Source: a virus
Lineage: Duplodnaviria > Caudoviricetes
Length of the DNA stretch: 25,305 nt
IMG/VR virus record: IMGVR_UViG_3300022909_000104
Coordinates: 1-25,305 of that record
Direction: 5' to 3' (one strand)
In this document: piece by piece, positions 1 to 22,943 of the stretch
Layout of the letters: every line of letters starts with the position of its first letter
Numbering within the stretch: the stretch's first letter is position 1
The notes under the pieces: model-generated
The model's input: only the letters and a program-made list of their open reading frames with translations
Database searches by the model: none
What the model was told of the DNA's origin: nothing
Position numbers and translations under genes: made by a program

Positions 1-105
1 ACCAATGATAAGTTCTAAATCACCATTGAGTGTTCGGGTATGTGTCAACTTAATAAAGGGTAGGATATAAACCTGCCCCCATATACTACTTATTGATATT
101 CTCAT
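1..105 (-). CDS. Hypothetical protein, partial (runs off the window start)
   Basis: Own translation MRISISSIWGQVYILPFIKLTHTRTLNGDLELIIG...; ATG overlaps the TGA of the upstream 28-aa ORF (ATGA coupling). Confidence 0.6.
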   Translation of the reverse strand, partial: MRISISSIWGQVYILPFIKLTHTRTLNGDLELIIG

Positions 106-188
106 TCTTCTCTACTATCTTTTATGATAATAAACAAACCCGTCAAAAGACAGGTAAGTAATAATATCATTATTGGAAACTCTATCAT
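102..188 (-). CDS. Small hydrophobic (single TM) protein, 28 aa
   Basis: Own translation MIEFPIMILLLTCLLTGLFIIIKDSREE; ATG lies in the 185-209 boundary repeat and the stop is coupled to the next ATG. Confidence 0.5.
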   Translation of the reverse strand: MIEFPIMILLLTCLLTGLFIIIKDSREE

Positions 189-436
189 CTCTATTTGGTA
201 TTAAAGGTTGAGTTGTAGTAATTATCAAATCGTGGTTGAGGTAATGACTCCCAATCTCCGCCTTCCATATATGCATCCATAATCTGCTCCTTCTCTTTCT
301 CAAGCATTGATTCTGCCAACGCAATTATCTTATCATTGTACATAAACGGCATTGCCTCATCATCTTCTTGACGCTTCTTGATTATCTCAATCAACTCTTG
401 CATTGGTGTTTTCATCTCTCTTTGGTGTTAAAGGTT
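185..436. repeat. 25-bp imperfect direct repeat at gene junctions (185-209 and 412-436)
   Basis: TCATCTCT[A/C]TTTGGT[A/G]TTAAAGGTT, 23/25 identical. On the minus strand it encodes ...TFNTK(ER)* and carries the next ATG. Confidence 0.85.
191..415 (-). CDS. Small hypothetical phage protein (MKTPMQELIE...EKEKEQIMDAY type)
   Basis: 74-aa ORF co-oriented with neighbours and bounded by the two 25-bp repeats. Confidence 0.75.
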   Translation of the reverse strand: MKTPMQELIEIIKKRQEDDEAMPFMYNDKIIALAESMLEKEKEQIMDAYMEGGDWESLPQPRFDNYYNSTFNTK

Positions 437-613
437 CTATTAAAGACACAAAACCCTATCGTTCTGCATCATTATTGGTTTCTATATGCCTCCGCATACA
501 ATCTAAAGGTTTTTCCGTTTTTTATATGCTTTGGCATTTGTAAGGTTATAGCCTTACCGAAATCAAATCTCGTGAGGTTATAGCCTTACTTTGTGTACCA
601 CTTTGGTACGCAT
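412..613 (-). pseudogene. Probable degraded small gene
   Basis: Coupled ATG at 613 (TGATG) reads MRTKVVHKVRL*. A shifted frame continues YNLTRFDFGKAITLQMPKHIK...YRNQ, then TAA TGA, then CRTIGFCVFNRTFNTKER* ending in the boundary repeat. Confidence 0.35.
540..589. repeat. Pair of 18-bp near-palindromic sites (540-557, 572-589) with a 14-bp spacer
   Basis: GTAAGGTTATAGCCTTAC and GTGAGGTTATAGCCTTAC; they differ at one base, and the first is a palindrome with one mismatched pair. Confidence 0.85.
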
Positions 614-759
614 CAAGGCAAGTCTTCCTCAGTTACACGAATAACAATCTCATCCTTACCTCTGCGTTGTAGTATGGTACGCAGTTTACGTGCTTGTTCA
701 ATGGTGTTGTAGGTTCCGTAAGTAACCCCCTTACAGATGACCTTAAATAACTTTTTCAT
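613..759 (-). CDS. Small basic hypothetical protein, 48 aa
   Basis: Own translation MKKLFKVICKGVTYGTYNTIEQARKLRTILQRRGKDEIVIRVTEEDLP; ATG overlaps the stop of 756-1307. Confidence 0.6.
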   Translation of the reverse strand: MKKLFKVICKGVTYGTYNTIEQARKLRTILQRRGKDEIVIRVTEEDLP

Positions 760-1307
760 ATCAAGTTCTTTACTCTCTTAAGTTCTTTGTCAAGTTGATG
801 ATTCCTAGTTTCAAGCCCCTCAACATACTTCTTGACAGACTCAATTCTTTTTAAATCTTTAGTTACGCTCTTCTTGTAGTCTTCAAACTCTTGAATCTTC
901 ATTCTCAGTTTGCGAGATATTTCAAGATATCTGAAGTGTATCTCTCCTGCTGAATCAGCAGTGGCTATAGTCTTAGGCACGATGCCGTTGTCCATTAGCA
1001 AGTCTTCAACTTCTTTGTTAAGGTTGTCCCATATTACTTTGTAGTCTCCATCGAACCTGTAGTTCATCTCGTGATTACGACAAGCGTGTAAAACGGTAGC
1101 GTGGTCTTTGCCAAGAATCCTTCCTATCCTCTGTAGAGGAAGGGCAACATTCTCTCTAGCGATGTGCATAAAAGCGTGTCTATGGATTACGTTGTGTCGT
1201 TCACGACTAGGTCCTACTTTGTTCGCCTTTGTATAATCATCCCAAAACCTTCTAAGGGTTTCGAAGGAGATTACAGACCCTACGATCTTAGAAATTTCGT
1301 CACTCAT
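756..1307 (-). CDS. DnaA C-terminal (domain IV)-like HTH protein with C-terminal coiled coil
   Basis: RHAFMHIARE...LQRIGRILGKDHATVLHAC matches the DnaA domain IV signature (IG..F..RDHTTV.HA); no AAA+ domain. Confidence 0.75.
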   Translation of the reverse strand: MSDEISKIVGSVISFETLRRFWDDYTKANKVGPSRERHNVIHRHAFMHIARENVALPLQRIGRILGKDHATVLHACRNHEMNYRFDGDYKVIWDNLNKEVEDLLMDNGIVPKTIATADSAGEIHFRYLEISRKLRMKIQEFEDYKKSVTKDLKRIESVKKYVEGLETRNHQLDKELKRVKNLI

Positions 1308-1593
1308 TTCCCTTGATGTTTTGGTTATGTATCTCCTCTATAGTCTTGTTTATAATGCTCTCTACGCCTCTTTGAGTCTGCATGAATATACTTTCTTGCT
1401 CTGTAGGTATGCTGTCTAGCAGGGGACGTAGATAGTTTTCTAACTTCTTCTCTAGGTTGTTTATAGACTTCTTGATGTCTTGCCTGTACAGGTTGGGAAC
1501 ATCTTTTATCTCATCCATCTGCTCTAGAGAGCATTGCAGAATAATCATCATCTTGACAACTGCTCTGAATCTTTCTTCTCCGTCCTTAGTCAT
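1300..1593 (-). CDS. Hypothetical protein
   Basis: 97-aa ORF in a tightly packed operon, overlapping both neighbours by 8 nt. Confidence 0.75.
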   Translation of the reverse strand: MTKDGEERFRAVVKMMIILQCSLEQMDEIKDVPNLYRQDIKKSINNLEKKLENYLRPLLDSIPTEQESIFMQTQRGVESIINKTIEEIHNQNIKGNE

Positions 1594-1792
1594 CCAGCGA
1601 ATCTTTTATAAGTCTGTTTATTTTCTCCTCGTCTAGTTTTAATATCCTGCGAAGTTTCTGACGCTCTTTAATTTTTGCCTTCTCGTAATCTGATTTGTTG
1701 CAATCTATACCGAGGTTAGCAAACATCAATGCGTTCTGTTTGAGTACGCAGTCTATAATCTTTTTGTGTTCGGGGTTGTCTTGATATGCCAT
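1586..1792 (-). CDS. Hypothetical protein
   Basis: 68-aa ORF, co-oriented and tightly packed. Confidence 0.7.
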   Translation of the reverse strand: MAYQDNPEHKKIIDCVLKQNALMFANLGIDCNKSDYEKAKIKERQKLRRILKLDEEKINRLIKDSLDD

Positions 1793-1794
1793 GA

Positions 1795-1989
1795 TTAGAA
1801 TTTTAATAGCCTTCTTCTTCTTTCATACTTCCGTAGAAGCAAACCTAAATTTTGCAAGTGTTCATCAATAGCATTGTGAAAACCTGTGTGTGAGGATGCA
1901 ACAACTGTGTTGATTATCTCCCATCTTATATCTGCTAGGTAGAGGTTAACATACCTCATGTGCCTAATTTTTCTTAAGTACTTCTTCAT
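1795..1989 (-). CDS. Hypothetical basic protein (start probably MKKYLRK)
   Basis: ORF track 1795-2007; the ATG at 1989 has an A-rich leader and less overlap. Confidence 0.65.
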   Translation of the reverse strand: MKKYLRKIRHMRYVNLYLADIRWEIINTVVASSHTGFHNAIDEHLQNLGLLLRKYERRRRLLKF

Positions 1990-2230
1990 GTTTTTGATTT
2001 GAGCCACTCCCCACCGATTTAGTGCTGAGTATCTTAGTTATTACTAATTGTTTCTGCGACTTATACTTAGTGCCGTAATACTTTCTAGTGAGTCTGTCCA
2101 TTGTTTTCTTATCATACTTCATGATCTCGATAGGTGTCTTAAATAGACTGACAGCCCACGTGTTGTCTTTGATGAATGATTTCGCCTTCTTGTAGGAAAT
2201 CTCAATCTCATGGTAATAAATCTCTCTCAT
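1964..2230 (-). CDS. Hypothetical Lys-rich protein
   Basis: 88-aa ORF directly after the 2241-2270 terminator. Confidence 0.65.
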   Translation of the reverse strand: MREIYYHEIEISYKKAKSFIKDNTWAVSLFKTPIEIMKYDKKTMDRLTRKYYGTKYKSQKQLVITKILSTKSVGSGSNQKHEEVLKKN

Positions 2231-2240
2231 CGCTTTAAAT

Positions 2241-2270
2241 AAAAAGGGGGAAGGGTTTCCCCTGTCCCCC
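2241..2270 (-). terminator. Intrinsic terminator after the putative SSB gene
   Basis: Minus strand GGGGGACAGGG-GAAA-CCCTTCCCCC-TTTTT. Confidence 0.75.
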
Positions 2271-2279
2271 GATTATAAT

Positions 2280-2561
2280 TTAGAATGGCAAATCCCCTGT
2301 AGTTGATGTTACCTCTACATGCACAGGCTTGTGCGTGTTTCCTTGATTAGGGTCGTAAACCGAAATCATGTTGTAGTTCTTACCTGCTTTGGATATACCG
2401 CTGCGGTAAGTCAAGTAAACTCGTGAAGGCTTACTTGCATCGTTGTTTGCCTTCAAGTACTTCTTGAGGTCGTCTAGTTCAGAAGCGGTTAGACTAAACT
2501 TTACTTCTGTACGTGGTGCGTTTGCGTAGCCCACTAACGGATCTTGTTTTTGATTATCCAT
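2280..2561 (-). CDS. Putative single-stranded DNA-binding protein
   Basis: 93 aa with a C-terminal DLPF tail, SKAGKNY strand motif, and a position in the ERF/exonuclease module. Confidence 0.55.
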   Translation of the reverse strand: MDNQKQDPLVGYANAPRTEVKFSLTASELDDLKKYLKANNDASKPSRVYLTYRSGISKAGKNYNMISVYDPNQGNTHKPVHVEVTSTTGDLPF

Positions 2562-2566
2562 TTTAA

Positions 2567-2866
2567 TTAAATTTTTGCTGACTCTTGAATTGACTTAGTG
2601 TAATAAAAAAAGTTGTCAGCGTAACCTTTATTATCGCACATGTTTTTTTCGTGTTGTTCAATATAGTAAAATACAGATGACTTAGACTTCTTAATCAGTT
2701 TAGATATTTCATCTAGTGTCATTCTACTATTGCTATACACATAGTAGCAGAACATCTTTCTAGCATCAGAAATCCTTTTACTTCTTGCCTCTGATGTGAT
2801 GTCTACGCCTAGTATATTAGTTGTTGTCTCAACTATACCTGTTGCTTTTTCTACGTTTAGTATCAT
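2567..2866 (-). CDS. DnaA domain IV-like HTH protein (second copy)
   Basis: DITSEARSKRISDARKMFCY...MTLDEISKLIKKSKSSVFYY resembles the DnaA C-terminal fold with a diverged recognition helix. Confidence 0.6.
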   Translation of the reverse strand: MILNVEKATGIVETTTNILGVDITSEARSKRISDARKMFCYYVYSNSRMTLDEISKLIKKSKSSVFYYIEQHEKNMCDNKGYADNFFYYTKSIQESAKI

Positions 2867-3702
2867 ATCTCTTTATAAATAGCAAATGTGCTTGTATCCT
2901 TTTCGGGTTGGTTTAACCATCTACTGATGTTCTCTACCGCACTCCAGAATTTATGTTCGCCCTTGCTTATAGTTACTTTTGACGCTTTGAATACGCCTAC
3001 TGTGTAAGGGACAGACTTAGTCTGAGCAACCCAATAAAAATCCCCAATCTGTTCAACGTGGGTGTAGATGTAGGCTTGAATCTCGTAATCGTACTTGAAT
3101 ACATCGTATTGGAATCCAAATAAGTCACGTGTTGTTTTAGAGTCGGTAATGAATCCATCTCCACGAACATCTAGATATCCTCTTACAGGGATGTCATCAA
3201 TCCAATCGTTAACCTCGTACTGAGCCTGTCCTTTCAAGTATGCTCTAACAGGTGTCATCTTACCTGTCTGCATATCTAACACCTCAGACTCATCTAATCG
3301 CACGATCATTTCCTCGACCTTTGATATGATTTCCTCGGTAATTATTTCCTTGTCTCCTGCGTGTTGAATCTCTCCCTCGTACCACTCGTTGTATTCTTCC
3401 TTCCACACCTTTGAGGCACGTGGACTCTTATACTTGTCTGAATACTTAGCGTCCAACTCAAGGCATTTCTGCTCATCGTAGACAACGTAAAACTTATCCA
3501 TGAACGTCTCGGGTTCTAGTAACATGCAGTCGTAAACTGAGCCGAATGTAAATGCATCAGACTGTTTCTTAAGCAGTCCTTTCATGTACAACTCAAAGAG
3601 TTTCATGTCCTGGTTTCTCGAACCATCAGCCGCGTATTTTATTGCAGAGTAAGAGAGATATCCCTTACCTGTACGCTCCATTAGTTTTCTTGCAAAGTCC
3701 AT
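2863..3702 (-). CDS. PD-(D/E)XK exonuclease, RecE/exonuclease VIII-like (DUF3799-like)
   Basis: LSYSAIK, FGSVYDCMLLEPE, RGYLD...TDSKTT and YEIQAYIY motifs; translationally coupled to ERF. Confidence 0.8.
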   Translation of the reverse strand: MDFARKLMERTGKGYLSYSAIKYAADGSRNQDMKLFELYMKGLLKKQSDAFTFGSVYDCMLLEPETFMDKFYVVYDEQKCLELDAKYSDKYKSPRASKVWKEEYNEWYEGEIQHAGDKEIITEEIISKVEEMIVRLDESEVLDMQTGKMTPVRAYLKGQAQYEVNDWIDDIPVRGYLDVRGDGFITDSKTTRDLFGFQYDVFKYDYEIQAYIYTHVEQIGDFYWVAQTKSVPYTVGVFKASKVTISKGEHKFWSAVENISRWLNQPEKDTSTFAIYKEI

Positions 3703-4289
3703 TACCCTACGAATTTAGCAAGAGCCTGTTTCTGCTTGTCAGAAGCCTGTTCTCCATACTTGGTTAATACTTGTTTGTACGCTAGTTCTTTTGACTTCTT
3801 GTCCTTTGCAGACTTGATGTAGTCAACAGCCTGTGTAAACCACTCTCCTGCAGGATTGCTTGAGGCTGTACGAGTTTGTGATTGTGATTGAGCCTGTCCA
3901 TGCGTGTTGGTTGCATCAGCATCCTTTGTGTCATCGATTAGGAACATTCCGTTCAATGCGTACTTACGAGCGTATGAACTTGAACTACCGAAAGACTGAG
4001 CGATGTCCATTCCTTTGCGATTTGGATCAATACCTGCTTGAGCAGAAGCATAAATCTTGTCTATACCATCCGTAACGATTACCGTTGCGTTGATGAATAC
4101 CATACTGCCTACCTCTAGAACCTCATCAGTGATTCGCATTGACAATCCGTTTTTCGCTAACAGAGGCTTAACAGACTCCAAAATATCTTCCGCACTGCGG
4201 TAAGCATACTTGCCAAAACTGTTGTATTGGCCCTTGGGTGCTTTAAGTTCTTTCTGAACATTTACCAAGGCGTTGTTTAATTTCTCCAT
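3702..4289 (-). CDS. ERF-family single-strand annealing protein
   Basis: LKAPKGQYNSFGKYAYRSAEDILESVKPLL and GSSSSYARKYALNGMFLIDD.KDAD hallmarks. Confidence 0.92.
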   Translation of the reverse strand: MEKLNNALVNVQKELKAPKGQYNSFGKYAYRSAEDILESVKPLLAKNGLSMRITDEVLEVGSMVFINATVIVTDGIDKIYASAQAGIDPNRKGMDIAQSFGSSSSYARKYALNGMFLIDDTKDADATNTHGQAQSQSQTRTASSNPAGEWFTQAVDYIKSAKDKKSKELAYKQVLTKYGEQASDKQKQALAKFVG

Positions 4290-4312
4290 GTCTTAACTGA
4301 ATTTGTTTCGAA

Positions 4313-4344
4313 CAAACATAAACCAATTGTTCTATATCTCCAAA
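4313..4344 (-). promoter_or_regulatory. Bacteroidota housekeeping-sigma promoter for the ERF operon
   Basis: Minus strand TTTG (4344-4341)-N20-TATGTTTG (4320-4313). Confidence 0.75.
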
Positions 4345-4440
4345 CAAACATCCGAAAATTTCATATTAGATTATATATAGAGGGTAAAGGGGGTTAGATA
4401 TTATATAATAATAATCATTGGGGGAATGGGAGGTTTGAGC

Positions 4441-4472
4441 AAAAAAAAGGGGCATCCCATACAGGACACCCC
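4441..4472 (-). terminator. Intrinsic terminator
   Basis: Minus strand GGGGTGTCCTG-TA-TGGGATGCCCC-TTTTTTTT. Confidence 0.8.
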
Positions 4473-4493
4473 TCCAACCAATCAATCAATCAT

Positions 4494-4643
4494 TTAAGCA
4501 TCAGCACCTAAATCTCTTTCGCTCAGACTATTAACCATCATTTGAAGTCTAAAAGCATTGAGCAGTAAAAGTGAATCTTGTTTATCGTATGCATACGTTT
4601 CAATCCACTCACATATATTTTTAATCTCTTCTATTCTTTCCAT
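4494..4643 (-). CDS. Small hypothetical protein (MERIEEIK..., 49 aa)
   Basis: ORF track 4494-4694; ATG at 4643 preferred, with a TACCTTG promoter-like box upstream near 4683-4689. Confidence 0.55.
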   Translation of the reverse strand: MERIEEIKNICEWIETYAYDKQDSLLLLNAFRLQMMVNSLSERDLGADA

Positions 4644-4769
4644 CTTTGTTAAAACTAAGTTAGTAACTTTTAGTGTACTTCGCAAGGTACACAAACCTGT
4701 ATATTTATTTTAGCCCTAGATTTGATTACCATTTCAAGCAACTCTCTCATCTTGGCTTGACTGAAATTT

Positions 4770-4797
4770 GGAGGGGGATAAAACCCCCTCCTTTTTT
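4770..4797 (+). terminator. Terminator-like hairpin oriented antisense to the flanking genes
   Basis: GGAGGGGG-ATAAAA-CCCCCTCC-TTTTTT on the plus strand. Confidence 0.55.
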
Positions 4798-5088
4798 CTA
4801 ATCATCAAGGTCACTCATCCCTCGGATAACTGACTTAAGGATATCTTCAATAGCAGTATCCATCATCATCTGAAACCTCGCCATGTATAGCGTGTGCATC
4901 AGTACCATTGCCTCATCCTGTGAGTCAGCAACAGCCTTACAAGCATCTATCACACTAGATACCTTGCTATTTCCTGTGGTAGTTTTTATGAGGTACTCAA
5001 TCTTCTCGAATGTTGTGTCCTCATCGAGTCCGTAGTGTCCTGTGATAGTGTCAGACTCTTTTTGGTTCATGAAATCATCAATTGTCAT
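4798..5088 (-). CDS. Hypothetical acidic protein
   Basis: 96-aa ORF in the early operon. Confidence 0.7.
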   Translation of the reverse strand: MTIDDFMNQKESDTITGHYGLDEDTTFEKIEYLIKTTTGNSKVSSVIDACKAVADSQDEAMVLMHTLYMARFQMMMDTAIEDILKSVIRGMSDLDD

Positions 5089-5099
5089 AATCGTGTAAA

Positions 5100-5780
5100 T
5101 TAAAATTGTGTTTTTATTTCTTTCAGTTCTTTAGTGTCTCCCTCCCAAGGCATGTCATACGTTCCTTCGATGTAGTATCCTGCCTCCATATCAGAGTATG
5201 GCGTTGCATGGTCAGACAACAGGTGTAGTATGTAGTTACCCTCTTCATCTTCGTAAGAAACTCCGCTCCAATCGGGGATGTCCCACTCCATGGATAGTCT
5301 GATTTCTCCATCCTCTTTTAGGTATTGAACACCAAACCCCTGCTCTTCTTCCCACCAATACTCTTGGATGTCTAAATCATCATCCATCATGAGAATGATT
5401 TCGGTATCCAATGGAGACCAAGCAGTCACGAAGTTTACGGCTACGATGTCAGACTCATCATCCAGCCAATCGTTAATTTCGATCTCGTAGTCTCCCCATT
5501 TTGTGTTCCAATTAGCGTTACACCATTCGTACCAATTAGCGTAATTAAACTTCTCGACATACTCATCATGCATTGACTGAGTAATACCCTTTCCGAACAT
5601 GTCATCAGTTTGATTTTCGTACTCCACTTGGCTTACAATCCTTGTAGGACTCGCAGTCCCACTCAGTTCTTTTGGCATCGGCTTGTAGTAACGAGCGAAC
5701 CCACCATTTGCAATTATCTCTCTCACTTTAGGCAACTTGCTAGAGTGGATTTTTATTTGGCTATATACGTGATTTGGCAT
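5100..5780 (-). CDS. DUF1281/YubB (Api92-like) ferredoxin-like domain protein
   Basis: MPNH start, PMPKEL, NWYEWCNANWNTKWG and F.TAWSP motifs; very acidic. Confidence 0.8.
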   Translation of the reverse strand: MPNHVYSQIKIHSSKLPKVREIIANGGFARYYKPMPKELSGTASPTRIVSQVEYENQTDDMFGKGITQSMHDEYVEKFNYANWYEWCNANWNTKWGDYEIEINDWLDDESDIVAVNFVTAWSPLDTEIILMMDDDLDIQEYWWEEEQGFGVQYLKEDGEIRLSMEWDIPDWSGVSYEDEEGNYILHLLSDHATPYSDMEAGYYIEGTYDMPWEGDTKELKEIKTQF

Positions 5781-5782
5781 GA

Positions 5783-6148
5783 CTATTCTAAATTAAAATC
5801 GTTATCATCTCCAATGGCTTCAGCAACCATTGATAAAATATCCTCCATTGATTCGGGGAATCCGATAGACTCGCCCTCCAAGTCAGACAGGATAATTAAT
5901 CCGTATCCTGCGAACATGTAGTCGTTTATTTGAAACTGACCGATTCGCTCAGATGCTCCATTCAGCATACCCTCTTCATCAAGCCAAAGGTCTACACTAA
6001 AGTCTTCTCCACTTGCGATGGGTACACGTTCAACTACCTCACATTGTAGTCTATCGTACAATTCTTTTAGTCCAACAATTCGATTGTCAAACTCTACTCT
6101 TTCAACCTTGCTTTCCACAGGGTTAATTAAAATTCCGTAATAGTTCAT
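5783..6148 (-). CDS. DUF3846-like protein
   Basis: ILINP...LKELYDRLQCEVVERV...LWLDEEGML...FAGYGLI pattern. Confidence 0.7.
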   Translation of the reverse strand: MNYYGILINPVESKVERVEFDNRIVGLKELYDRLQCEVVERVPIASGEDFSVDLWLDEEGMLNGASERIGQFQINDYMFAGYGLIILSDLEGESIGFPESMEDILSMVAEAIGDDNDFNLE

Positions 6149-6150
6149 GG

Positions 6151-6351
6151 TTATTTAAATAATTGATTAATGAATTTATCGTAAGTCTCAACCCAAGATG
6201 CAGTACGCAACTTGTGGCCTTTGATGATTGTGACTTGCACTTTGTCTGATGCATCCGAGTCACTTCGGTCTAGACTCACGTATTCGTGGTCATAGTAGTC
6301 ATGGTCTGCTCGAGCCATGTGGTCATCTAGTTTTTCGTTTAACTCTCTCAT
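6151..6351 (-). CDS. Hypothetical protein
   Basis: 66-aa ORF, tightly packed. Confidence 0.65.
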   Translation of the reverse strand: MRELNEKLDDHMARADHDYYDHEYVSLDRSDSDASDKVQVTIIKGHKLRTASWVETYDKFINQLFK

Positions 6352-6358
6352 CGCTTGT

Positions 6359-6514
6359 TTATTCTATGTGTTTGTTAGTAAGCAGGTCCACCACCTCGAT
6401 GTGTTCTGCAAATGCTCCTAGGTCAAACGCCTCGATTAATGAATCTGCGAATCTGATTTCGTTGTACCCCTCGCCACCATGGTAGAGGGTTATTTGATAC
6501 CTATTGATTTTCAT
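6359..6514 (-). CDS. Small hypothetical protein, 51 aa
   Basis: Own translation MKINRYQITLYHGGEGYNEIRFADSLIEAFDLGAFAEHIEVVDLLTNKHIE; follows the 6533 promoter. Confidence 0.65.
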   Translation of the reverse strand: MKINRYQITLYHGGEGYNEIRFADSLIEAFDLGAFAEHIEVVDLLTNKHIE

Positions 6515-6532
6515 AATTGTTTAATGTTTGTT

Positions 6533-6563
6533 CAAATTTAATTCAAATAAATCACTTACGCAA
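6533..6563 (-). promoter_or_regulatory. Bacteroidota-type promoter
   Basis: Minus strand TTG (6563-6561)-N20-TAAATTTG (6540-6533). Confidence 0.7.
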
Positions 6564-6731
6564 GTGTTCTAGCAAATTTTCATCCTCGGTCCATACCTCA
6601 TCAAGTATGTAGCCCTTTCTACTCATCCATTTGATGTAGTTGTCGTAGTGGTACAGGTCGTTGAATTCCATATCCCTGCCCACGTTGTAGCCTCTACCAC
6701 CTGTGTAGAAGAATTGTAGTTTCGCTTTCAT
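6552..6731 (-). CDS. Hypothetical protein (MKAKLQFFY..., 59 aa)
   Basis: 3' part of ORF 6552-6851; the ATG at 6731 follows the upstream stop by 1 nt. Confidence 0.65.
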   Translation of the reverse strand: MKAKLQFFYTGGRGYNVGRDMEFNDLYHYDNYIKWMSRKGYILDEVWTEDENLLEHLRK

Positions 6732-6732
6732 C

Positions 6733-6915
6733 TTACTTGTTTCTTGAATCGTTATACTCATCTGCCTCGTAAATGGCGTAAGCGCCAATCCATACCATCG
6801 CCAACAAAATCGTTGGGATGAACATCTCTTTAGATTCCATAAAGAATCCACACCATCCTGTTAGAGCCATTCCAATTAGACTCGCAATCTGAATTTTGAT
6901 CAATTTACCTTTCAT
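6733..6915 (-). CDS. Small two-TM membrane protein
   Basis: MKGKLIKIQIASLIGMALTGWCGFF...MFIPTILLAMVWIGAYAIY, two hydrophobic stretches. Confidence 0.65.
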   Translation of the reverse strand: MKGKLIKIQIASLIGMALTGWCGFFMESKEMFIPTILLAMVWIGAYAIYEADEYNDSRNK

Positions 6916-6930
6916 TGAATTTGATTTTGT

Positions 6931-6951
6931 GAGGGGGCATTGCACCCCCTC
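6931..6951 (-). other. Intergenic GC hairpin with a T-loop-like heptaloop
   Basis: GAGGGGG-TGCAATG-CCCCCTC followed by ACAAAATCAA and no U-tract. Confidence 0.6.
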
Positions 6952-6961
6952 GGTTTATTAG

Positions 6962-7882
6962 TTACGCTACCTTTAGCGCATTGATTTCACTTAGTCTAGC
7001 CTTGCAGAAAGCAACAGCATTCTCAACATTACGGAACGCATCATCAGATGGGGATGGTATGTTTACCACGATGTCTGACTCAAACAATGAGTTCTCTAGT
7101 TCATCAGTAACTCCAAGTTCCTTGCGGTCAGCCTGTCTCCCGTATCCGCTAGACACTCGGTAATCCTTTCCGAAGAACTCATCGCTTCCGTTCTCTAAGA
7201 TTGAGAATACAATTCTTCTGAAGAAACTAGGATGCGATACTGCCCCGAGTCTACGATTATCTACAGGCTCATCGTAGTCTTTCATGCTGATGTAGGTCAC
7301 GTTGTCAACCTGTTTACCTGTAGCCGAATCCTTGCCCTGCTTCTTTGCTGAGTATGTCGCTGAGACTCTGATGTGTGCCTCTTCGCTGAGTATCTCAGAC
7401 AACTTTGTCACTACTGCAGACTGAATGTAAAAGTTCATTGCAGGTATGTTGGCGTTAGCACCACCCTCGAAAACGATGTGTATGCTTGGCGCTTCGCCCA
7501 TGTTCTTGCGCTTGAACCATACTTCATCATCGCCACTCAGTATGCTAGGGATGTCAAAAGCATAGCCCTCTTCAGCCATCTTGATTACCTCTTGACTAGA
7601 CTCAAACGCAGTATCAAATCCAGCAAACGCGCCTTTCATTTGTTCGGGCTGATACCCAATAGTTAAGAGCCTCTTAGATGCCTCTAGACTAGAGCCAAAT
7701 TCCACATCGCCATGGAACTTAGCATTTCTATCTTTTGAACTTGCGGCAGTCATATCAAAGCCATCTGCACACATAATCGTTGTTGGCTTGTAGTCTTCAA
7801 TGAATTCTGACAACTCGCTGAAGTTTAGTGATAACAGGTTAGTATAATTGTTACCATCCTCTTTGATTTTCTTGCGAAACAT
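6962..7882 (-). CDS. VWA-like partner of the MoxR-type ATPase (DUF7192-like), degenerate MIDAS
   Basis: FDIPSILSG, IHIVFEGGANA, MKDYDEPVD and HPSFFRR motifs; directly downstream of the ATPase. Confidence 0.65.
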   Translation of the reverse strand: MFRKKIKEDGNNYTNLLSLNFSELSEFIEDYKPTTIMCADGFDMTAASSKDRNAKFHGDVEFGSSLEASKRLLTIGYQPEQMKGAFAGFDTAFESSQEVIKMAEEGYAFDIPSILSGDDEVWFKRKNMGEAPSIHIVFEGGANANIPAMNFYIQSAVVTKLSEILSEEAHIRVSATYSAKKQGKDSATGKQVDNVTYISMKDYDEPVDNRRLGAVSHPSFFRRIVFSILENGSDEFFGKDYRVSSGYGRQADRKELGVTDELENSLFESDIVVNIPSPSDDAFRNVENAVAFCKARLSEINALKVA

Positions 7883-7928
7883 ATCTATTGATTATTAAGT
7901 TAGACTTGATGATTGTGATGAGTGACCC

Positions 7929-9581
7929 TTAAAGAGCCACACCATCCAACAATCCTTTTTGTACATCCTCCTTGTGAGGATTCAGAATAGCCATGTATAC
8001 GGCATCTCTGATGCTGAAGCCTAGACCCACCATGCGGTTCACTTCACGTGTTCTACGTGGCGTTACAAGGCCGTTCATACCCATCTTATTTGCATTGGCA
8101 CGAATCTTAAACACTATGTTCGTTGCATTGGTGTTACCGAATATGCTACGCTCTAGCGCCTCATCGTATCCCCAATCCATGTAGATGAATCTATCCATGG
8201 TCGCATCATCCATCTTGTTACGAGCATTGAACTTCTTGTTACCACCCTTGCCGTAAGTGTTCGTACATGCCACGTATCTGAACTCGGGATGTCTAGACAC
8301 CTGTGCATCATCGAACGTGTACTCATCGCCATCCAACAGGTTGTTCAAGGCCATTGCTACGTTAGCGTTAGCGGCATCAAACTCATCGAGTATAAGTACG
8401 CCACCATTCTCGTACATCTCACGTATTGCAGTAGTCACATACTTACCATTCGCATTCATGAATCCCATTGTACGACCTAGACTAGTTTCGTTAGTGAAAC
8501 TGAAGATTCTGAAGTCTAGACCCAACGCCTTGGCTACTGACTTAGCGCCAAATGTCTTACCGCTTCCTGCATCGCCTGTCATCATCACAGGTACTTTGCC
8601 ACTTACGAGTCTGAGCAACTCTTCGAACTTGAAGTGCTGAACGCCTAGTTTCTTAGTCTCAGACTTAGATGGCAACTTGACCTCGATAGTCTTAACCTGT
8701 GGTTGTGTAGCCTTTCGTACTTCCTCGACTACGATAGTCTTTACTTGCTCGATGTCTACTGCACCTGCAGTCTGACCTGCGATTGCTTTAATCGCCTCTG
8801 CTAATTGTTGATTTGCATCCATTGTTTTTGCTGATGTTTTGGTTGTTGATTTTGTTTTATCCGTTTTCAGTTTGTTCTTGATACTATCGATGATTCCGTT
8901 GTACACAATCTCACTATGGCTTTCTTGCCACTCAAGATCGATTGAGTACTCGTTTTCGCCCCAAGAAAAGTCTATCAAGTCTAGGGCAGACTCAGTGCAG
9001 TATAGCCATACCCAATCCTGCTCGCTATGCTTACCTATCGAGAACCCATTGCCCAAGTCTACATGCTCTCCATGCTCAAGGTTTGCATCGCTCTCTAGCC
9101 AATCGCCCACATCGCTAGGCTTGATACCTGCATAAGTGGTTAGACTATGCATTGCTTTACCCGCATGGCTTTCTTCATTGTAGTGCCAATCAGCCCCATC
9201 AGACTTGGTTGATGGTATCGGCTCTGACTCCAGTCCAAACGCCTTTTCAAGATTGCTGATGGCAACTTTTGGGTCAGCATGTATTGCAACGTGACCATTA
9301 ATTCTGAGGTACATCCATTCGTAGTCTGCTTGTCCCTTGTTATTGGAAAAGCGGTCTACTGCTATCAGCCATTCGCCATCCTTGAACGCACATAGCATCT
9401 CATCGGCCATCTTGCCGCCCTTACTTTGAAGTTTACACACCGCCTGTGCTACGCTTAGTTTACCTGTCGGTTTAGTCAGACCTGCCTTAACGTATAGGTC
9501 TTGAGACTTTTCTGCCTTGTGCAGTACTTGACCCTCATACTTGTCAATGATAGCCCACTTGTTTGAAACAAAACGACTCAT
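7929..9581 (-). CDS. MoxR/CbbQ/CobS-like AAA+ ATPase with a long unknown N-terminal region
   Basis: Walker A GDAGSGKT, Walker B LILDEFD, ACTNT.G.G and MDDATMDRF arginine finger. Start at 9581 (MSRF) or 9599. Confidence 0.88.
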   Translation of the reverse strand: MSRFVSNKWAIIDKYEGQVLHKAEKSQDLYVKAGLTKPTGKLSVAQAVCKLQSKGGKMADEMLCAFKDGEWLIAVDRFSNNKGQADYEWMYLRINGHVAIHADPKVAISNLEKAFGLESEPIPSTKSDGADWHYNEESHAGKAMHSLTTYAGIKPSDVGDWLESDANLEHGEHVDLGNGFSIGKHSEQDWVWLYCTESALDLIDFSWGENEYSIDLEWQESHSEIVYNGIIDSIKNKLKTDKTKSTTKTSAKTMDANQQLAEAIKAIAGQTAGAVDIEQVKTIVVEEVRKATQPQVKTIEVKLPSKSETKKLGVQHFKFEELLRLVSGKVPVMMTGDAGSGKTFGAKSVAKALGLDFRIFSFTNETSLGRTMGFMNANGKYVTTAIREMYENGGVLILDEFDAANANVAMALNNLLDGDEYTFDDAQVSRHPEFRYVACTNTYGKGGNKKFNARNKMDDATMDRFIYMDWGYDEALERSIFGNTNATNIVFKIRANANKMGMNGLVTPRRTREVNRMVGLGFSIRDAVYMAILNPHKEDVQKGLLDGVAL

Positions 9582-9640
9582 GATTGTGATGCACAGCATT
9601 ACCTGTGACTAACATTTGATTGATTGATTATTAAATTGAT

Positions 9641-9686
9641 TTGTAGCATGGCAGGGAATCGAACCCTGCCTAGTACCATACATGCT
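9641..9686 (-). ncRNA. tRNA-like minihelix (acceptor-like stem plus T-arm), not a full tRNA
   Basis: AGCATG-TATGGTACTAG-GCAGGG-TTCGATT-CCCTGC-CATGCT-ACAA. Confidence 0.55.
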
Positions 9687-9919
9687 TAGTCTAAATTCGG
9701 CCATGACTCATGCCACAAGATGGTCAGTTCCTCAAACATGAACTCCTTATTGATAGCACCATTCGCATCGTAAACATCTCTTACTTCTCTATCGGTTACT
9801 ATCTCTTTGATGTTCTTGCCTTGAACGTACTCTTGGTACTCATCGTGGCTTAGAACTACATCTACATCAGCGTAATATGTGACTACGATATCTACAGGTA
9901 TTTTTACTTTGAATGACAT
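9686..9919 (-). CDS. Hypothetical acidic protein
   Basis: 77-aa ORF, tightly packed. Confidence 0.7.
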   Translation of the reverse strand: MSFKVKIPVDIVVTYYADVDVVLSHDEYQEYVQGKNIKEIVTDREVRDVYDANGAINKEFMFEELTILWHESWPNLD

Positions 9920-9921
9920 AA

Positions 9922-10248
9922 TTAGAATGGTTTATTGTTAGCGTATTTGAATGCTTTCTTGTACTCCTTGCGGATGAGTCTAAGGTGGTACATTAGGTCT
10001 TTTAGACCGCCCATGTCATACTCATCAGTCTTGTTCACATTGTAGCGTTTCTCAAAGCCATAGCCGTATCCGCTGCTAGACTCGTTCTCTTTGATGTAGA
10101 CAAATTGATTCTTGTGTTCTACACCTGTTACATCAATGACCATCGGCCATGTTCCACCATCGTAGCATACTACATGCATGTGGTTCTCTTGTACGAACTC
10201 GCATAGTTCGTTTACCTCGTTGATTAGATTGATTACTGACTTTTTCAT
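9922..10248 (-). CDS. Hypothetical protein
   Basis: 108-aa ORF with an AATC-repeat leader. Confidence 0.75.
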   Translation of the reverse strand: MKKSVINLINEVNELCEFVQENHMHVVCYDGGTWPMVIDVTGVEHKNQFVYIKENESSSGYGYGFEKRYNVNKTDEYDMGGLKDLMYHLRLIRKEYKKAFKYANNKPF

Positions 10249-10269
10249 GTTGATTGATTTTGATTGATT

Positions 10270-10485
10270 TTATTGATTAGCCTCAGATGCTAGTTCATCC
10301 AAGAAGATTGAGTTCTCAAGCGTTCTGAGTTCCATGATTTCCAACTCTAGTCTAGAGGCCACAGCCTCGTTAGACTCAGTCCATAACTTCTTCACGAGTT
10401 TGCGTTCCTCGTTGTTTAGCATTCTACGGATTAGTCTAGATTGCGCTTTGTTCATTTGCAGGGTAACGTTGATTTGCTTGTCCAT
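10270..10485 (-). CDS. Hypothetical protein, first gene of the leftward arm
   Basis: 71-aa ORF downstream of the 10542 promoter. Confidence 0.7.
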   Translation of the reverse strand: MDKQINVTLQMNKAQSRLIRRMLNNEERKLVKKLWTESNEAVASRLELEIMELRTLENSIFLDELASEANQ

Positions 10486-10541
10486 GTCTTTAAGTTTTAT
10501 GGATTGTTAAATACAGCCTCAGCCGTTGTCGTTTGACATTC

Positions 10542-10574
10542 CAAAGATACATCGAGTCTGACCATATTTCCAAA
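10542..10574 (-). promoter_or_regulatory. Main leftward (early) promoter
   Basis: Minus strand TTTG (10574-10571)-N21-TATCTTTG (10549-10542). Confidence 0.8.
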
Positions 10575-10949
10575 GTATTTCCAAAAGCCTAGTGTTGATG
10601 GGCAATGCCGAGTCTGACCCCATTGTAGGTTTGTTCCTCTGAGGATAGTTGTATTGGGGGGTATTGTTCATCGTAAGCAAATCACGATAGAATTTATGTG
10701 CCTATATATATATGTATAGTCTAGCCACTAAAAAGCCAAAAAGTTTCATCGTAAATGGCTGATAATGAGGGGGTTAGGTTTCAGATTTCGTTTCGGTATC
10801 CATCGGTCAGCGTCCCTATATATATAGAATCCCCAACTTCTTTATTTCTCAACCATTTTTCCATTTACCCTGTAGATCGAAACAAATTGATTTGTGTGTT
10901 CTGTTAACCTTAAAACATATTCAATAATACTGGACATTATTTGCACGAA

Positions 10950-11000
10950 CTTAAAGTGATACTTTAAGCTTGCATATGTCAAAAAAAAGCTGTAACTTTG
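10950..11000 (+). promoter_or_regulatory. Rightward promoter with an adjacent inverted-repeat operator
   Basis: CTTAAAGT-GAT-ACTTTAAG (10950-10968), then TTG (10970-10972)-N20-TAACTTTG (10993-11000). Confidence 0.75.
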
Positions 11001-11004
11001 CCCA

Positions 11005-11160: not shown

Positions 11161-11208
11161 GCTTTACTTTAACTATAGCCTCTAAATATTTGATAAACAA
11201 GTATTTAC

Positions 11209-11216: not shown

Positions 11217-11220
11217 CTGT

Positions 11221-12804: not shown

Positions 12805-12962
12805 TGAAGGCTAAACGCAAAAAAGTAATGGTAAAGGCTCCTGACGGTTATCACTGGATGACCGAAGGGGGCCGTCATTACCTAATGCCACACGAGGGAA
12901 AGTTTGTCCCTCACAAGAATGCTTCACTAGAAGCTGAATTCAAAGTTAAGCAGGTACATTAA
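12804..12962 (+). CDS. Small hypothetical protein, 52 aa
   Basis: Own translation MKAKRKKVMVKAPDGYHWMTEGGRHYLMPHEGKFVPHKNASLEAEFKVKQVH; TAATG coupling. Confidence 0.7.
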   Translation: MKAKRKKVMVKAPDGYHWMTEGGRHYLMPHEGKFVPHKNASLEAEFKVKQVH

Positions 12963-13380
12963 TCTGCTCATCCCCCTCTAACTTACGGTAATAACGCTGG
13001 ACCAGTAGTCTACCCTTCTGGCTCACGGCATACCTCACCCTGTAGTTCATCTTAGACTCGCTAAACATAGCCTCCTCATAACTACTGGGAGAAAGCTTGT
13101 CGTAATATTTGTATATGTAGCCACTGTTCATCAATGGGTATACAATACGCTCACCAATTTTTTTCTTACTGTAGAAGTAATCTTCCGATGCCTTGTCTAA
13201 TGTCCAGAACATATAGTCGTAGAAGAACAGTAAGAAGTTCATCTGAGATTCATTTATATCGTAGTGGGCAGACATGTCACGCATCACTAGTCTGTTGTAT
13301 TTCAAGTATGTTTTCCCTATTCTATCGGGATCTTCCATCTTAAAATCACGGAACATACTCTTTTTAGACTGCTTTGCCAT
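12946..13380 (-). CDS. Putative winged-helix (MarR-like) DNA-binding regulator
   Basis: YDINESQMNFLLFFY...PLMNSGYIYKY...YAVSQKGRLLV pattern; has its own promoter; the only minus-strand gene in the right arm. Confidence 0.6.
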   Translation of the reverse strand: MAKQSKKSMFRDFKMEDPDRIGKTYLKYNRLVMRDMSAHYDINESQMNFLLFFYDYMFWTLDKASEDYFYSKKKIGERIVYPLMNSGYIYKYYDKLSPSSYEEAMFSESKMNYRVRYAVSQKGRLLVQRYYRKLEGDEQINVPA

Positions 13381-13386
13381 TTTTAT

Positions 13387-13411
13387 TAAATTTGCATAGA
13401 ATACAAAGATA
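13387..13411. promoter_or_regulatory. Bidirectional face-to-face promoter pair
   Basis: Plus TAAATTTG 13387-13394 and minus TATCTTTG 13411-13404, 9 bp apart. Confidence 0.75.
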
Positions 13412-13416
13412 CTCAA

Positions 13417-14524: not shown

Positions 14525-14755
14525 ATGATTAGAAAAATTATCATCGGAAGAGACCCGAAGGATGCCATGGCTTATTATGTAGGCATGCGCGCAGGGGCAG
14601 GAAAAGTAAGCGCAATTGTTCAAGACGAGGCGCATTTACACCATCACGGAAAAAAACGGTATCTGATTTATATCGAGAACGAGGAAGGCACAATGCTATG
14701 GAAAGCCATTGACGATATGCCGTGTATACTCGAGTACGATTTAAATTTTGATTGA
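14525..14755 (+). CDS. Hypothetical phage protein upstream of the GroES-like gene
   Basis: 76-aa ORF with an A-rich leader. Confidence 0.8.
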   Translation: MIRKIIIGRDPKDAMAYYVGMRAGAGKVSAIVQDEAHLHHHGKKRYLIYIENEEGTMLWKAIDDMPCILEYDLNFD

Positions 14756-14756
14756 T

Positions 14757-15344
14757 ATGAGACCGTTAAAACATTTCATCGTAAGGATAGACAAGAAGTT
14801 TAAAGACGAGATAAAGTTGTCCGATGAGACAACTCTTAAGCTCATCACAAAGTTCAACGAGTTTGAACACCGATACAATTACGGACAAATAGTCTCTCCC
14901 CCCGTAAGTTACCGTGGCGCAGCTGTCGGCCAGGTACTTTATTTTCACCACCACGTAGTAATGGAGCAAGCCTATGATCTTGGAGAAAACCTATACATGG
15001 TTAATTATGACCCCAACGGAGGATATAGCAATCACGCTATCGCAGTCGAAGATGAAGCTGGTGATATTACTATGCTTGGTGACTGGTGTTTCGTTTTACC
15101 CCCTGATAAGCCGAAAGAGGAAACAACTTCTTCTGGCATTGTTCTTAAGCTCGCAGAAGAACCTAAACTGGAGGGCGAACTACTCACCCTACCCCAAGAT
15201 TCAGAATGGATTGGAACGAAGCCTGGTGATCTGGTGGGCTATACGAAAAATTCAGAATATAAAATGGAACTCATAGACGGTACATCAGTGTACCGAATGA
15301 GAACATCAGAGCTAGTCTATGTCAAGGAAGAAGAACAGCTTTAA
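14757..15344 (+). CDS. GroES-like co-chaperonin with two tandem GroES-type domains
   Basis: MRPLKHFIV...GQIVSPP...VGQVLYF, then LGDWCFVLP...EETTSSGIVL...KPGDLVGY...YRMRTSEL. Confidence 0.75.
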   Translation: MRPLKHFIVRIDKKFKDEIKLSDETTLKLITKFNEFEHRYNYGQIVSPPVSYRGAAVGQVLYFHHHVVMEQAYDLGENLYMVNYDPNGGYSNHAIAVEDEAGDITMLGDWCFVLPPDKPKEETTSSGIVLKLAEEPKLEGELLTLPQDSEWIGTKPGDLVGYTKNSEYKMELIDGTSVYRMRTSELVYVKEEEQL

Positions 15345-15615
15345 TACAGTAGAAGCGTCAACGAGACTGTTGGCATCTATGGAGATCGCAATCAATAACA
15401 TGATTGATGAAATAAGAAAACCTGTGGATGCAGAACTATCTGGTTCTCAACGCAAGGCAGAACTACAGAGTATAAAACAAACAGCTACAGATGCAAAAGA
15501 ACTCCTTATTGAATACCAGCGACTCGAACAAATGGTTAGAGAACTTAAGGAAACAGGAGGAATTGAAGAAGAGCAAGACTACTCAGGAGGATTCGCAGAG
15601 CGATTCTCAAAGTAA
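15319..15615 (+). CDS. Hypothetical helical protein, candidate terminase small subunit
   Basis: 98 aa, coiled-coil-like, immediately upstream of TerL; function is inferred from position only. Confidence 0.55.
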   Translation: MSRKKNSFNTVEASTRLLASMEIAINNMIDEIRKPVDAELSGSQRKAELQSIKQTATDAKELLIEYQRLEQMVRELKETGGIEEEQDYSGGFAERFSK

Positions 15616-15651
15616 GTGGAGATTTCTCTACTGGGAATAAAATAAAATTAA

Positions 15652-17778: not shown

Positions 17779-17798
17779 TTCGCAGTAGTTTAATTTTG

Positions 17799-17806
17799 TA
17801 TCTTTG
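17799..17806 (+). promoter_or_regulatory. -7 promoter box for the portal gene
   Basis: TATCTTTG 24 nt before ATG 17831. Confidence 0.65.
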
Positions 17807-17830
17807 CGAGGAAGTATTCTGCGAAACGCT

Positions 17831-20289: not shown

Positions 20290-20673
20290 ATGGCAACCAG
20301 CATAAACTTAGACATAGCAAACAGGGTAGATATCACCACAAGACGTGGAGATAGTTTTACTCTAGAACTAACATTTAAAGATGAGGACGGAGTTGCCATT
20401 GATCTATCGGATGGTTACGAGTGGATGATGCAAGTACGTGAGTCAGACACATCTGGATCAGCCTTACTTGATGGAGACTCTAATGACGATACCGCTAATG
20501 ACTTTGGTTTTACTGGAGACAACAACGGACTGCTAACTATTACCGCTTCATCAAACACCATGGCTACGATAGAGGGTGGTATTTATGTGTATGACCTACA
20601 GTCCTCTCAAGGTGCTACAGTCATTACTTGGATGTACGGAATCTTTAAAGTGAACGAAGACGTAAGTGAGTAA
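20290..20673 (+). CDS. Virion structural protein, BppU N-terminal-like Ig fold
   Basis: RRGDSFTLELTFKD..G.AIDLS...MQVR...G.YVYDLQ...G.F.V pattern. Confidence 0.7.
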   Translation: MATSINLDIANRVDITTRRGDSFTLELTFKDEDGVAIDLSDGYEWMMQVRESDTSGSALLDGDSNDDTANDFGFTGDNNGLLTITASSNTMATIEGGIYVYDLQSSQGATVITWMYGIFKVNEDVSE

Positions 20674-20992
20674 TATAACCGTAAAAAACCAAGAGAGCAT
20701 TAGTGTAACCATCACACAAAGTGGTTACAACAAAAGCACGGTCATCAAACAACCTGTAGAGAACCAGATTGACATTCGTGGTCTCAAGGGTGGTGGTGAT
20801 AAGAACTACGTTCACGTGCAAGATACTCCCGCTTCGGTGTGGACAGCATCACACAACCTAGGTAAACGCCCATCTGTTGTAGTTGTTGACTCTGCTGAAG
20901 ATGTAGTTTACGGAGACATAAGATATATAGACGATAACACAGTAACCCTAACTTTTGTCGGAGCATTTTCTGGCAGAGCATATTTTAACTAA
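20666..20992 (+). CDS. Small tail/fibre-associated structural protein
   Basis: YVHVQDTPASVWTASHNLGKRPSVVVVD...Y.DDNTVTLTF...SG.AY motif. Confidence 0.7.
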   Translation: MSNITVKNQESISVTITQSGYNKSTVIKQPVENQIDIRGLKGGGDKNYVHVQDTPASVWTASHNLGKRPSVVVVDSAEDVVYGDIRYIDDNTVTLTFVGAFSGRAYFN

Positions 20993-20994
20993 CT

Positions 20995-22119: not shown

Positions 22120-22943
22120 TGCCGTATTTAGGTTATTTACTTGCCCAAGCTTTAAAGGCTGGGGAGACTATTGCACAGGCGATAACGAGTGCTGCCAGCT
22201 ATGTAACAAAGGTTGGTGGCTCTGTCGTTGATCTAAGCCCTAGCGTAGAAGCGTTGAAGAGTCCTACAACAGGGAGTGCATCGTTTAATGCTGATGGGGA
22301 TATTATTTCATTTGAAGTTCCAAAGTTTACAATTAAGGCATCTGCTGGTTGGTACTATTTAAAAGATGATGTCACTGGAAACGGAACTGCTCGTGAAGCT
22401 TGGTGTTTCGGAACGCAACAGCCTAATGGATTAAAGTTTGGTGATGCTACAGGTGCAAGAAGTGATGAGGTAATTACTGTATATGCATATCAAGGATTGA
22501 CAAGAAGTATGGTTGCTTCTAATTATCTTGATGGTAGTAAATTAAATGGTGGTCAATGGTATCACATCGCTTTTAGCAATTACGGAAGATCAGATGAGTA
22601 TTATGAAGTTTATGTAAATGGTCAAGTCAAAGCGATGAATTTTGCAAACAGCTCTGGAGTAAACTTGATGGACACATATAACACCGATGGATCTCAAAAC
22701 TACATACATCTTGGAGGTATGTATTACAATGGATATGTAAACACTCTAGCTGGATCTTTGGCTAATGTGTCTTTTTACGATAGATCTCTTTCTCCAGAAG
22801 AAATACGTTCAATAATGATGAAGTCTTACGATGAATTAACCGCAACTGAGACTAAAGGTCTGATGATGTGGTTTGAATATGATGGAGGTGCAACCATCCT
22901 TAGTGATAAGACAGGTAACGCAACAAACGGAACAGTAAGCTAA
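22119..22943 (+). CDS. LamG/concanavalin A-like domain structural protein
   Basis: GQWYHIAF...VYVNG...GSLANVSFYDRSLSPEEI. Confidence 0.8.
   Translation: MPYLGYLLAQALKAGETIAQAITSAASYVTKVGGSVVDLSPSVEALKSPTTGSASFNADGDIISFEVPKFTIKASAGWYYLKDDVTGNGTAREAWCFGTQQPNGLKFGDATGARSDEVITVYAYQGLTRSMVASNYLDGSKLNGGQWYHIAFSNYGRSDEYYEVYVNGQVKAMNFANSSGVNLMDTYNTDGSQNYIHLGGMYYNGYVNTLAGSLANVSFYDRSLSPEEIRSIMMKSYDELTATETKGLMMWFEYDGGATILSDKTGNATNGTVS

Follow-up and report, generated by a model that had tools for sequence, protein, structure and literature searches.

Regional loss of short restriction-type motifs from the early arm of a tailed-phage genome, and a possible link to ordered DNA entry

Organization of the locus

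The 25,305-nucleotide stretch of viral DNA considered here (the window; positions 1 to 25,305 of IMG/VR record IMGVR_UViG_3300022909_000104, Caudoviricetes) carries leftward early and middle genes in its left arm and GroES, terminase, portal and structural genes in its right arm, and the gap from which the arms diverge contains a non-coding block, here called element A (Table 1). About ten motifs of 4-6 nt have been largely purged from the left arm and not from the right, and the edge of the purged zone lies within element A. The sequencing runs in which it occurs are labelled salt marsh or seawater metagenome.

Table 1. Features of the window (aa, amino acids; a dot marks a feature without strand)
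Feature	Positions	Strand	Remarks
Purged zone, early and middle genes	1..10810	.	Leftward genes; open at the window's left end
Outer tier, middle genes	1..4220	-	AGCT, CCTGA still absent; GGTGA once; CCAG rare
Two DnaA C-terminal helix-turn-helix (HTH) proteins and small open reading frames (ORFs)	756..2866	-	HTH proteins at 756-1307 and 2567-2866
ERF single-strand annealing protein and exonuclease VIII-like protein	2863..4289	-
Inner tier, early units to ERF promoter	4220..10810	-	7 sites of the 8 pooled motifs in 6.6 kb
-7 octamer before ERF	4313..4320	-	Predicted middle promoter
Terminator-like hairpin closing early units	4446..4475	-	Second at 4770-4791
DUF3846 protein (121 aa) and DUF1281_C-family protein (226 aa)	5100..6148	-	DUF1281_C via homologues
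AAA_5 ATPase (556 aa) and DUF7192 partner (306 aa)	6962..9599	-	Family searches
First three early ORFs (71, 108, 77 aa)	9686..10485	-	No family match
-7 promoter octamer before first early gene	10542..10549	-	Bacteroidota-type
Element A	10730..10856	+	Fixed-spacing, single-copy, non-coding block of ~125 nt; holds purge edge
Conserved rightward promoter block	10949..11003	+	-7 octamer 10993-11000; holds AGCT at 10967 and 10988
Minus-strand gene within late arm	12946..13416	-	Internal strand control; one AGCT, one GATC
GroES-like gene, small terminase candidate (98 aa, by inference), large terminase, portal	14748..20272	+	Large terminase 15652-17778, portal 17804-20272; unpurged
Structural/adhesin block	20600..25305	+	No CATG, TCGA, GGCC or CGCG; separate compartment

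Motif loss in the left arm

A first-pass annotation of the window had reported, from hand counts, that AGCT, CCWGG and GATC are absent or scarce in the left arm. Recounting bore out its AGCT figures (none in 1-10966, the first at 10967, 64 up to 20.3 kb) and reproduced exactly its eight left-arm GATC positions, with 47 more sites in 10871-20870; across the edge as a whole, AGCT stands at 0 left versus 94 right and GATC at 8 versus 58. GGCC, GCGC and TCGA do occur on the left, as had been stated (8, 8 and 29 sites). CCWGG occurs once on the left (3609) and 18 times on the right; its loss is real, but is a by-product of a stronger purge of CCAG/CTGG, since CCWGG always holds CCAG on one strand. 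An unbiased comparison of all 4-6-mers between the arms likewise upheld the three-motif set but revealed it to be incomplete, about ten words being affected. Raw left versus right counts in this comparison were 7 versus 118 for CCAG/CTGG, 12 versus 74 for CGTC/GACG, 6 versus 76 for ACNGT, 1 versus 24 for GGTGA and 0 versus 19 for CCTGA.

Synonymous codons were permuted within the 21 left-arm ORFs (500 shuffles), and in a second null were drawn from the right arm's usage. Observed versus expected counts under permutation were 0 versus 38.0 for AGCT, 8 versus 38.2 for GATC, 6 versus 48.0 for CCAG, 10 versus 50.0 for GACG/CGTC, 6 versus 20.1 for ACNGT, 0 versus 13.7 for GGTGA and 0 versus 12.0 for CCTGA, and for each of these seven words none of the 500 shuffles was as low. 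The words purged on the left are near expectation on the right (observed/expected, O/E, 0.69-1.22). Within 4.3-10.7 kb, GCNNGC (1 versus 9.7), ACAGA (0 versus 9.8) and CCTTC (1 versus 12.4) are low as well, and both strands are purged of the non-palindromic words (CTGG 3 versus 20.5, CCAG 0 versus 9.9; GACG 0 versus 22.7, CGTC 0 versus 5.9), in agreement with the earlier view that gene orientation is no explanation.

Codon or amino-acid usage, or pressure at the mRNA level on highly expressed early genes, could in principle produce such a pattern; plasmid leading regions have adapted codons and no consistent palindrome depletion (PMC13478746). One word tried, GCWGC, does fall to this explanation, its low raw counts being accounted for by amino-acid content (2 versus 4.7 under the codon null), and it was set aside. 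For the main motifs usage effects are refuted and hardly tenable as a general account: depletion survives permutation with either arm's codon usage, antisense copies are gone too, and control words show early/late ratios of 0.80-1.54. The avoidance is thus real, acts at the level of double-stranded DNA and depends on position, so that the left arm shows what is expected of leading-region avoidance: depletion confined to one arm, beyond codon effects and on both strands.

We take the purged words to include sites of AluI, Sau3AI/MboI, HpyCH4III, Cac8I, HphI and HpyAV, and know of no enzyme for GACG, CCTGA or ACAGA. Neither CCGG nor CGNCG occurs anywhere in the window (1-25305), which implies that some motifs are purged genome-wide and others tolerated in the late arm.

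Edges of the purged zone and element A

A sharp edge had been placed at ~10.87-10.97 kb. A sharp edge is indeed found thereabouts, but a change-point fit on eight pooled motifs puts it best at 10,810 (support 10,755-10,875), with 7 sites in 4.5-10.8 kb versus 336 in 10.8-20 kb. A second, inner edge lies at ~4,220 (3,615-4,635), at the ERF promoter and terminator-like hairpin, and divides the zone into two tiers: GACG, ACNGT and ACAGA are absent from the inner tier and CCTTC occurs there once, whereas all four reappear in the outer tier. The G010 orthologue of the late-arm minus-strand gene holds 5 AGCT and 8 CCAG.

An element A profile from 9 sequences recovered 25 more records, and a second-round profile built from 28 matched 34 of 50 records, once each, with E below 1e-4; records without a match do not span the gap, belong to other groups or are cultured isolates. 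The element has no stable fold (z 1.14) and no Rfam match near threshold, and we infer that it is a candidate terminus or packaging site, or an origin. When 19 genomes were aligned on it, purged words mostly stood at 0.2-0.5 sites per motif per kb on the early side (one bin 1.1), a low level that is partly circular because the words were picked per genome as low in early genes. Across ~400 nt at element A the density then rises to 1.4, 2.3 and about 4, and the position of this rise within the gap, unlike the low side, is not circular. The early promoter lies 200-300 nt inside the edge. At its end the element has an AT run and then a word that we take to resemble a DnaA box, and the early arm encodes the two DnaA C-terminal HTH proteins; element A may also be a replication origin.

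The octamers follow TAnnTTTG, presumably the Bacteroidota -7 promoter element, and further copies lie at 6540 and before several late genes (10993, 11209, 12080, 13387, 17799 and 20278). A scan of the window for E. coli-type Sigma-70 promoters gave results below chance. Around the octamers at 4320 and 6540 a 36-nt stretch matches at 78% (4293-4328, 6515-6550), with a related word at 10877-10893; these repeats may be operator sites.

Recurrence and turnover in related phages

By sequence the window phage is an uncultured marine podovirus related to Elemovirus and Pervagoviridae with Bacteroidota-type promoters, and its earlier assignment to a Bacteroidota host was borne out by its terminase relatives, the hosts of their isolates and the promoter type. 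Identity of the large terminase is 47% to MW202828 (the maximum for any deposited phage), 40% to Elemovirus elemoA and 34% to Calle_1, values too low for genus-level membership in Elemovirus, Pervagoviridae or Pachyviridae. Terminase and portal also match Pervagoviridae, Pachyviridae and Maribacter phage Panino. A crassvirus muzzle domain, crAss_MUZ_C, occurs in two relatives (G016 and G017) and, with the related terminase and portal, suggests a tie to Crassvirales of relation only. Near-complete relatives have genomes of 57-62 kb.

Recurrence was evaluated in 27 relatives for which both arms are present beside the gap, making 28 sequences with the window. Outside this set stood G005, G007, G009, G011, G020, L101, L107, L109, L131, L133, L137, L143, L169, L176, L181, L199, L216, L227, Calle_1, Gundel_1 and Panino, the G and L records having too little of one arm, being near-duplicates or belonging to other groups. 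In 21 of the 27 relatives at least one word is purged on the early side only (codon null, same anchor), although the 27 are not independent cases, because they include the kin groups G018/L177/L178, G022/G023 and G006/L141. The motif set differs between genomes: counting the window, ACNGT is purged in 13 of 28, CCAG in 11, CGTC in 10, AGCT in 8, and GATC and GCNNGC in 5 each. Trees place the AGCT purge in at least three separate clades, and G010 shares five of the window's words, the two being barely similar in nucleotide sequence over the first early genes. Pooled O/E generally climbs with distance from the early start (0.06, 0.05, 0.07, 0.26 and 0.32 in the window; 0.60 to 1.06 in G002). The AGCT-free stretch measures 6.2-6.8 kb in L141, G018 and L177, where it ends in or just past the start of ERF, 9.8 kb in G023, 12.4 kb in G022 and 3.1 kb in G021; in G007 it covers at least 11.3 kb, reaching to within about 1 kb of the convergent point. 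Loss is genome-wide for GATC in G003, G004 and G016, for CCAG in MW202828, and for AGCT, GATC and TCGA in G013. Over the 61 kb of MW202828, GATC is absent and CCAG nearly so (4 sites, all inside CCWGG). Most ERF loci without the family markers show no regional purge.

Comparison of orthologues shows how sites turn over. L141 and G006 are collinear at 79-86% nucleotide identity, yet none of the 32 early AGCT sites of G006 is kept in L141, 16 of the 32 losses being synonymous, whereas 8 of 13 are kept in exonuclease and ERF (p 6e-6 versus early genes). Between the window and G016, 0 of 16 AGCT sites are kept in middle genes and 13 of 36 in late genes (p 0.005).

These comparisons bear on the proposal that recombination brought in the left arm as a module from a lineage avoiding the words genome-wide, or that the contig is a chimera. 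Relatives purged genome-wide do exist (G013), the early genes are hypervariable, and the block past the portal resembles a swapped module. Against this, single contigs from three other runs bridge the edge (10510-13000, 10481-13000 and 10703-13000), and proteins of both arms have the same closest relatives, with G010 as sister in the exonuclease (0.97), ERF (0.93) and, weakly, terminase (0.50) trees. The site-by-site loss in collinear orthologues and the graded far edge also speak against it. The purge edge is no assembly chimera, and the module proposal is largely refuted and very improbable.

The block past the portal was probably acquired by exchange, as a tail module from a lineage that avoids other words. 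In the near-identical G009, 15 kb of it (6.9-22.2 kb, window orientation) hold no CATG (21.4 expected), TCGA (26.3), GGCC (7) or CGCG (8), and TCGA is absent past the portal in G016 and G011 too. Module exchange therefore does create compartments in this genome, though the early arm is not explained by it.

Proposed ordered entry and its rivals

The first-pass annotation had proposed that the left arm enters the cell first, from a genome end in the divergent gap, and must survive until an anti-restriction or methylation function acts. Regional avoidance, the Bacteroidota affiliation, recurrence in relatives and a predicted terminal repeat in Gundel_1 support this proposal in part; the anti-restriction or methyltransferase gene it called for was not found in the window. 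In the form that we consider probable, the genome has fixed ends, the early arm enters first and slowly, and products of the early genes shield the remainder, as in T5/BF23 and Murciavirus. Since a single linear genome should not survive a cut at any point, avoidance limited to one arm would imply that the rest is protected, and a sharp edge at one element with a fading far side would imply fixed ends and one-way entry. Headful packaging, it is argued in PMC12455610, would not yield regional loss.

One fixed end of the virion genome would lie at element A or beside it, and the order along the genome would be end, early, middle, convergent point, late, end. DNA would enter from element A through the early genes, along transcription and probably drawn by host RNA polymerase, as the entry of T7 DNA is paced by host polymerase; such pacing would explain the inner edge at a terminator. 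The early arm would meet restriction enzymes that are still active and be purged site by site of about ten motifs, after which early products would inactivate or block the nucleases. With the nucleases disarmed early, a site in the late arm or more than 6-12 kb along the entering DNA would cost little. The differing reach of each motif may mark when each enzyme is neutralised, and the differing motif sets of the lineages would follow from differences in the systems of their host strains.

For Gundel_1, a distant relative, PhageTerm predicts a terminal repeat of 322 bp in the corresponding divergent gap, just upstream of small genes, and the deposited Panino sequence begins in the divergent gap, matching the predicted order; a weak element A match (E 0.021 when five junction regions were searched) lies 190-275 nt short of its right end. 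In phi38:1, which has no RNA polymerase of its own, early, middle and late genes are expressed end to end (PMC5335546). Contig ends of terminase loci did not cluster clearly at the gap. Late-side contigs were deeper in three runs (138 versus 96-107, 34 versus 23-27 and 18 versus 6-11; window 8500-13000), a difference that was not used because contig depth is flat and summed; the excess may stem from packaging polarity or from early genes that vary between strains.

Several findings weigh against ordered entry. The Gundel_1 repeat has no element A match, the Panino paper names no terminus method, no molecule ends appear in the contig-level data examined, and element A could instead be an origin. 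Family searches of the window recognised neither an anti-restriction gene nor a methyltransferase. Neither a host nor a cognate enzyme was identified, literature look-ups gave no Bacteroidota match, and two metaepigenome studies assign methylation of AGCT and of GATC to Thaumarchaeota and further groups other than Bacteroidota. Six of the 27 relatives (G001, G003, G021, G025, L178 and elemoA) fall short in the strict test, G006 is almost flat, and Gundel_1, Calle_1 and Panino have weak early dips only. The post-portal compartment, finally, shows that compartments arise where first entry is no explanation.

The whole genome might instead enter fast, shielded by co-ejected internal proteins, with exposure limited to the early arm as the part that host RNA polymerase opens first; selection would then come from the same agent without staged entry. 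Every near-complete relative encodes a protein of 2,300-3,900 aa at the end of the late arm, two such giant proteins (G002, L086:6739-15066; G020, L258:12137-19960) carry an LPD38 polyvalent-protein domain and are candidates for ejected internal proteins, and the purge edges track promoters and terminators. The giant proteins scanned have no methyltransferase motif, however, the edge at element A lies beyond the early promoter, and the fade with distance is what ordered entry predicts, so that shielding without staged entry appears unlikely. A slightly less likely rival holds that the avoidance escapes host methylation and not cleavage of unmethylated sites, marks brought along from the previous host triggering modification-dependent nucleases, or methylation or protein binding hindering early transcription. 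GATC, AGCT and CCAG are known methylation targets (PMC8919816, PMC6329791, PMC10689673, the last documenting a CCAG-specific methyltransferase), and T5-like phages suppress host methylation (PMC10644984). The number of motifs, their complete loss in coding sequence, the fast turnover between lineages and the genome-wide loss in some relatives fit restriction better, and first exposure of the early arm would still be required.

Candidate genes

By position only, the 71-, 108- and 77-aa early ORFs are anti-defence candidates; the ESM Atlas returned nothing beyond leads under 0.9 for the 77- and 108-aa proteins. Among 361 early-arm ORFs of the relatives scanned, the only named anti-restriction gene is ArdC, the second early gene in G003 (L089:9788-10702). 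G001, without a regional purge, encodes a C5 methyltransferase (L083:8596-9657), a single case that proves nothing, and in G006 two ORFs look methyltransferase-like by eye (L112:17154-17828 and 19041-19523) and have no Pfam or NCBIfam match. We presume that DUF932, DUF1281, RadC, DUF3846 and ArdC are tied to anti-defence regions. They are unnamed in the main text of PMC11541004.

Neither a single-subunit RNA polymerase nor Ocr was found in the window or in the early arms of the relatives scanned, and no virion RNA polymerase was found: the terminal giant protein of 13 genomes has no DFDxD motif, and PDB searches gave no match. Scans for loci with the AAA ATPase and the DnaA-like protein as queries found none. 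A host search in a genome collection gave no prophage or host, and three short contigs in non-Bacteroidota bins.

Comparison with known systems and significance

The principle is already known from T5/BF23 and Murciavirus. In T5/BF23 (Tequintavirus), restriction sites matter only in the first-entering segment and are tolerated elsewhere, but T5 also carries A1/A2, an injection-stop signal and a terminal repeat of ~9.7 kb (PMC10644984, 10.1101/866236), whereas the window's group comprises ~60-kb podoviruses with a zone of 3-12 kb, a graded far edge and about ten motifs of 4-6 nt. No PHROG or Pfam match to A1/A2 was found among the window's early ORFs, and no T5-style long repeat was seen, near-complete relatives being classed 'linear, no end repeats', although assemblies collapse repeats. 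Murciavirus (Autographiviridae) shows motif loss confined to its leading region and variable early genes, but for one Type I motif (Mme2I), with escape mutants and in a T7-like phage with its own RNA polymerase (PMC12455610); in the window the motifs are many, short, Type II-like and known from sequence alone, and no phage RNA polymerase was found. By analogy the window phage would work like T5/BF23 and Murciavirus without being a member of either, no A1/A2, Ocr, polymerase or long repeat having been seen.

Elemovirus, Pervagoviridae (phi38:1, Calle_1), Pachyviridae (Gundel_1) and Panino share with the window the terminase, a portal of ~820 aa and the order GroES-terminase-portal, and elemoA, Calle_1 and Panino also have divergent early and late arms; the cultured isolates differ in their weak or missing regional purge and in having no clear element A. 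Conjugative plasmid leading regions are first-entering DNA with anti-defence genes, as the early arm of this group may be too (ArdC in G003), and differ from the window's strongly depleted arm in not being consistently depleted of palindromes (PMC13478746). Subscription papers and supplements aside, no description of regional avoidance in this phage group was found in the literature.

A more specific account is offered tentatively, as rather less probable than ordered entry itself: that a large, uncultured, crAss-related marine podovirus clade, lacking long terminal repeats and its own RNA polymerase, uses stepwise, transcription-paced entry from a conserved 125-nt terminal element, that unannotated early protein or proteins protect against many unrelated short-site nucleases, and that the nested zones time the disarming of each enzyme. 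If so, undescribed defence nucleases of Bacteroidota would target words such as GACG, CCTGA and ACAGA. The protection of late-entering DNA in T5-like phages is still unexplained (PMC10644984), and the clade would provide a second system, unrelated to theirs, in which the genome end is precisely predicted (element A), the anti-restriction candidates form a short list and sister pairs differ in one purged motif. Genome-wide avoidance scores miss the regional signal, from which entry polarity and the restriction motifs of uncultured hosts may be readable in phage sequence.

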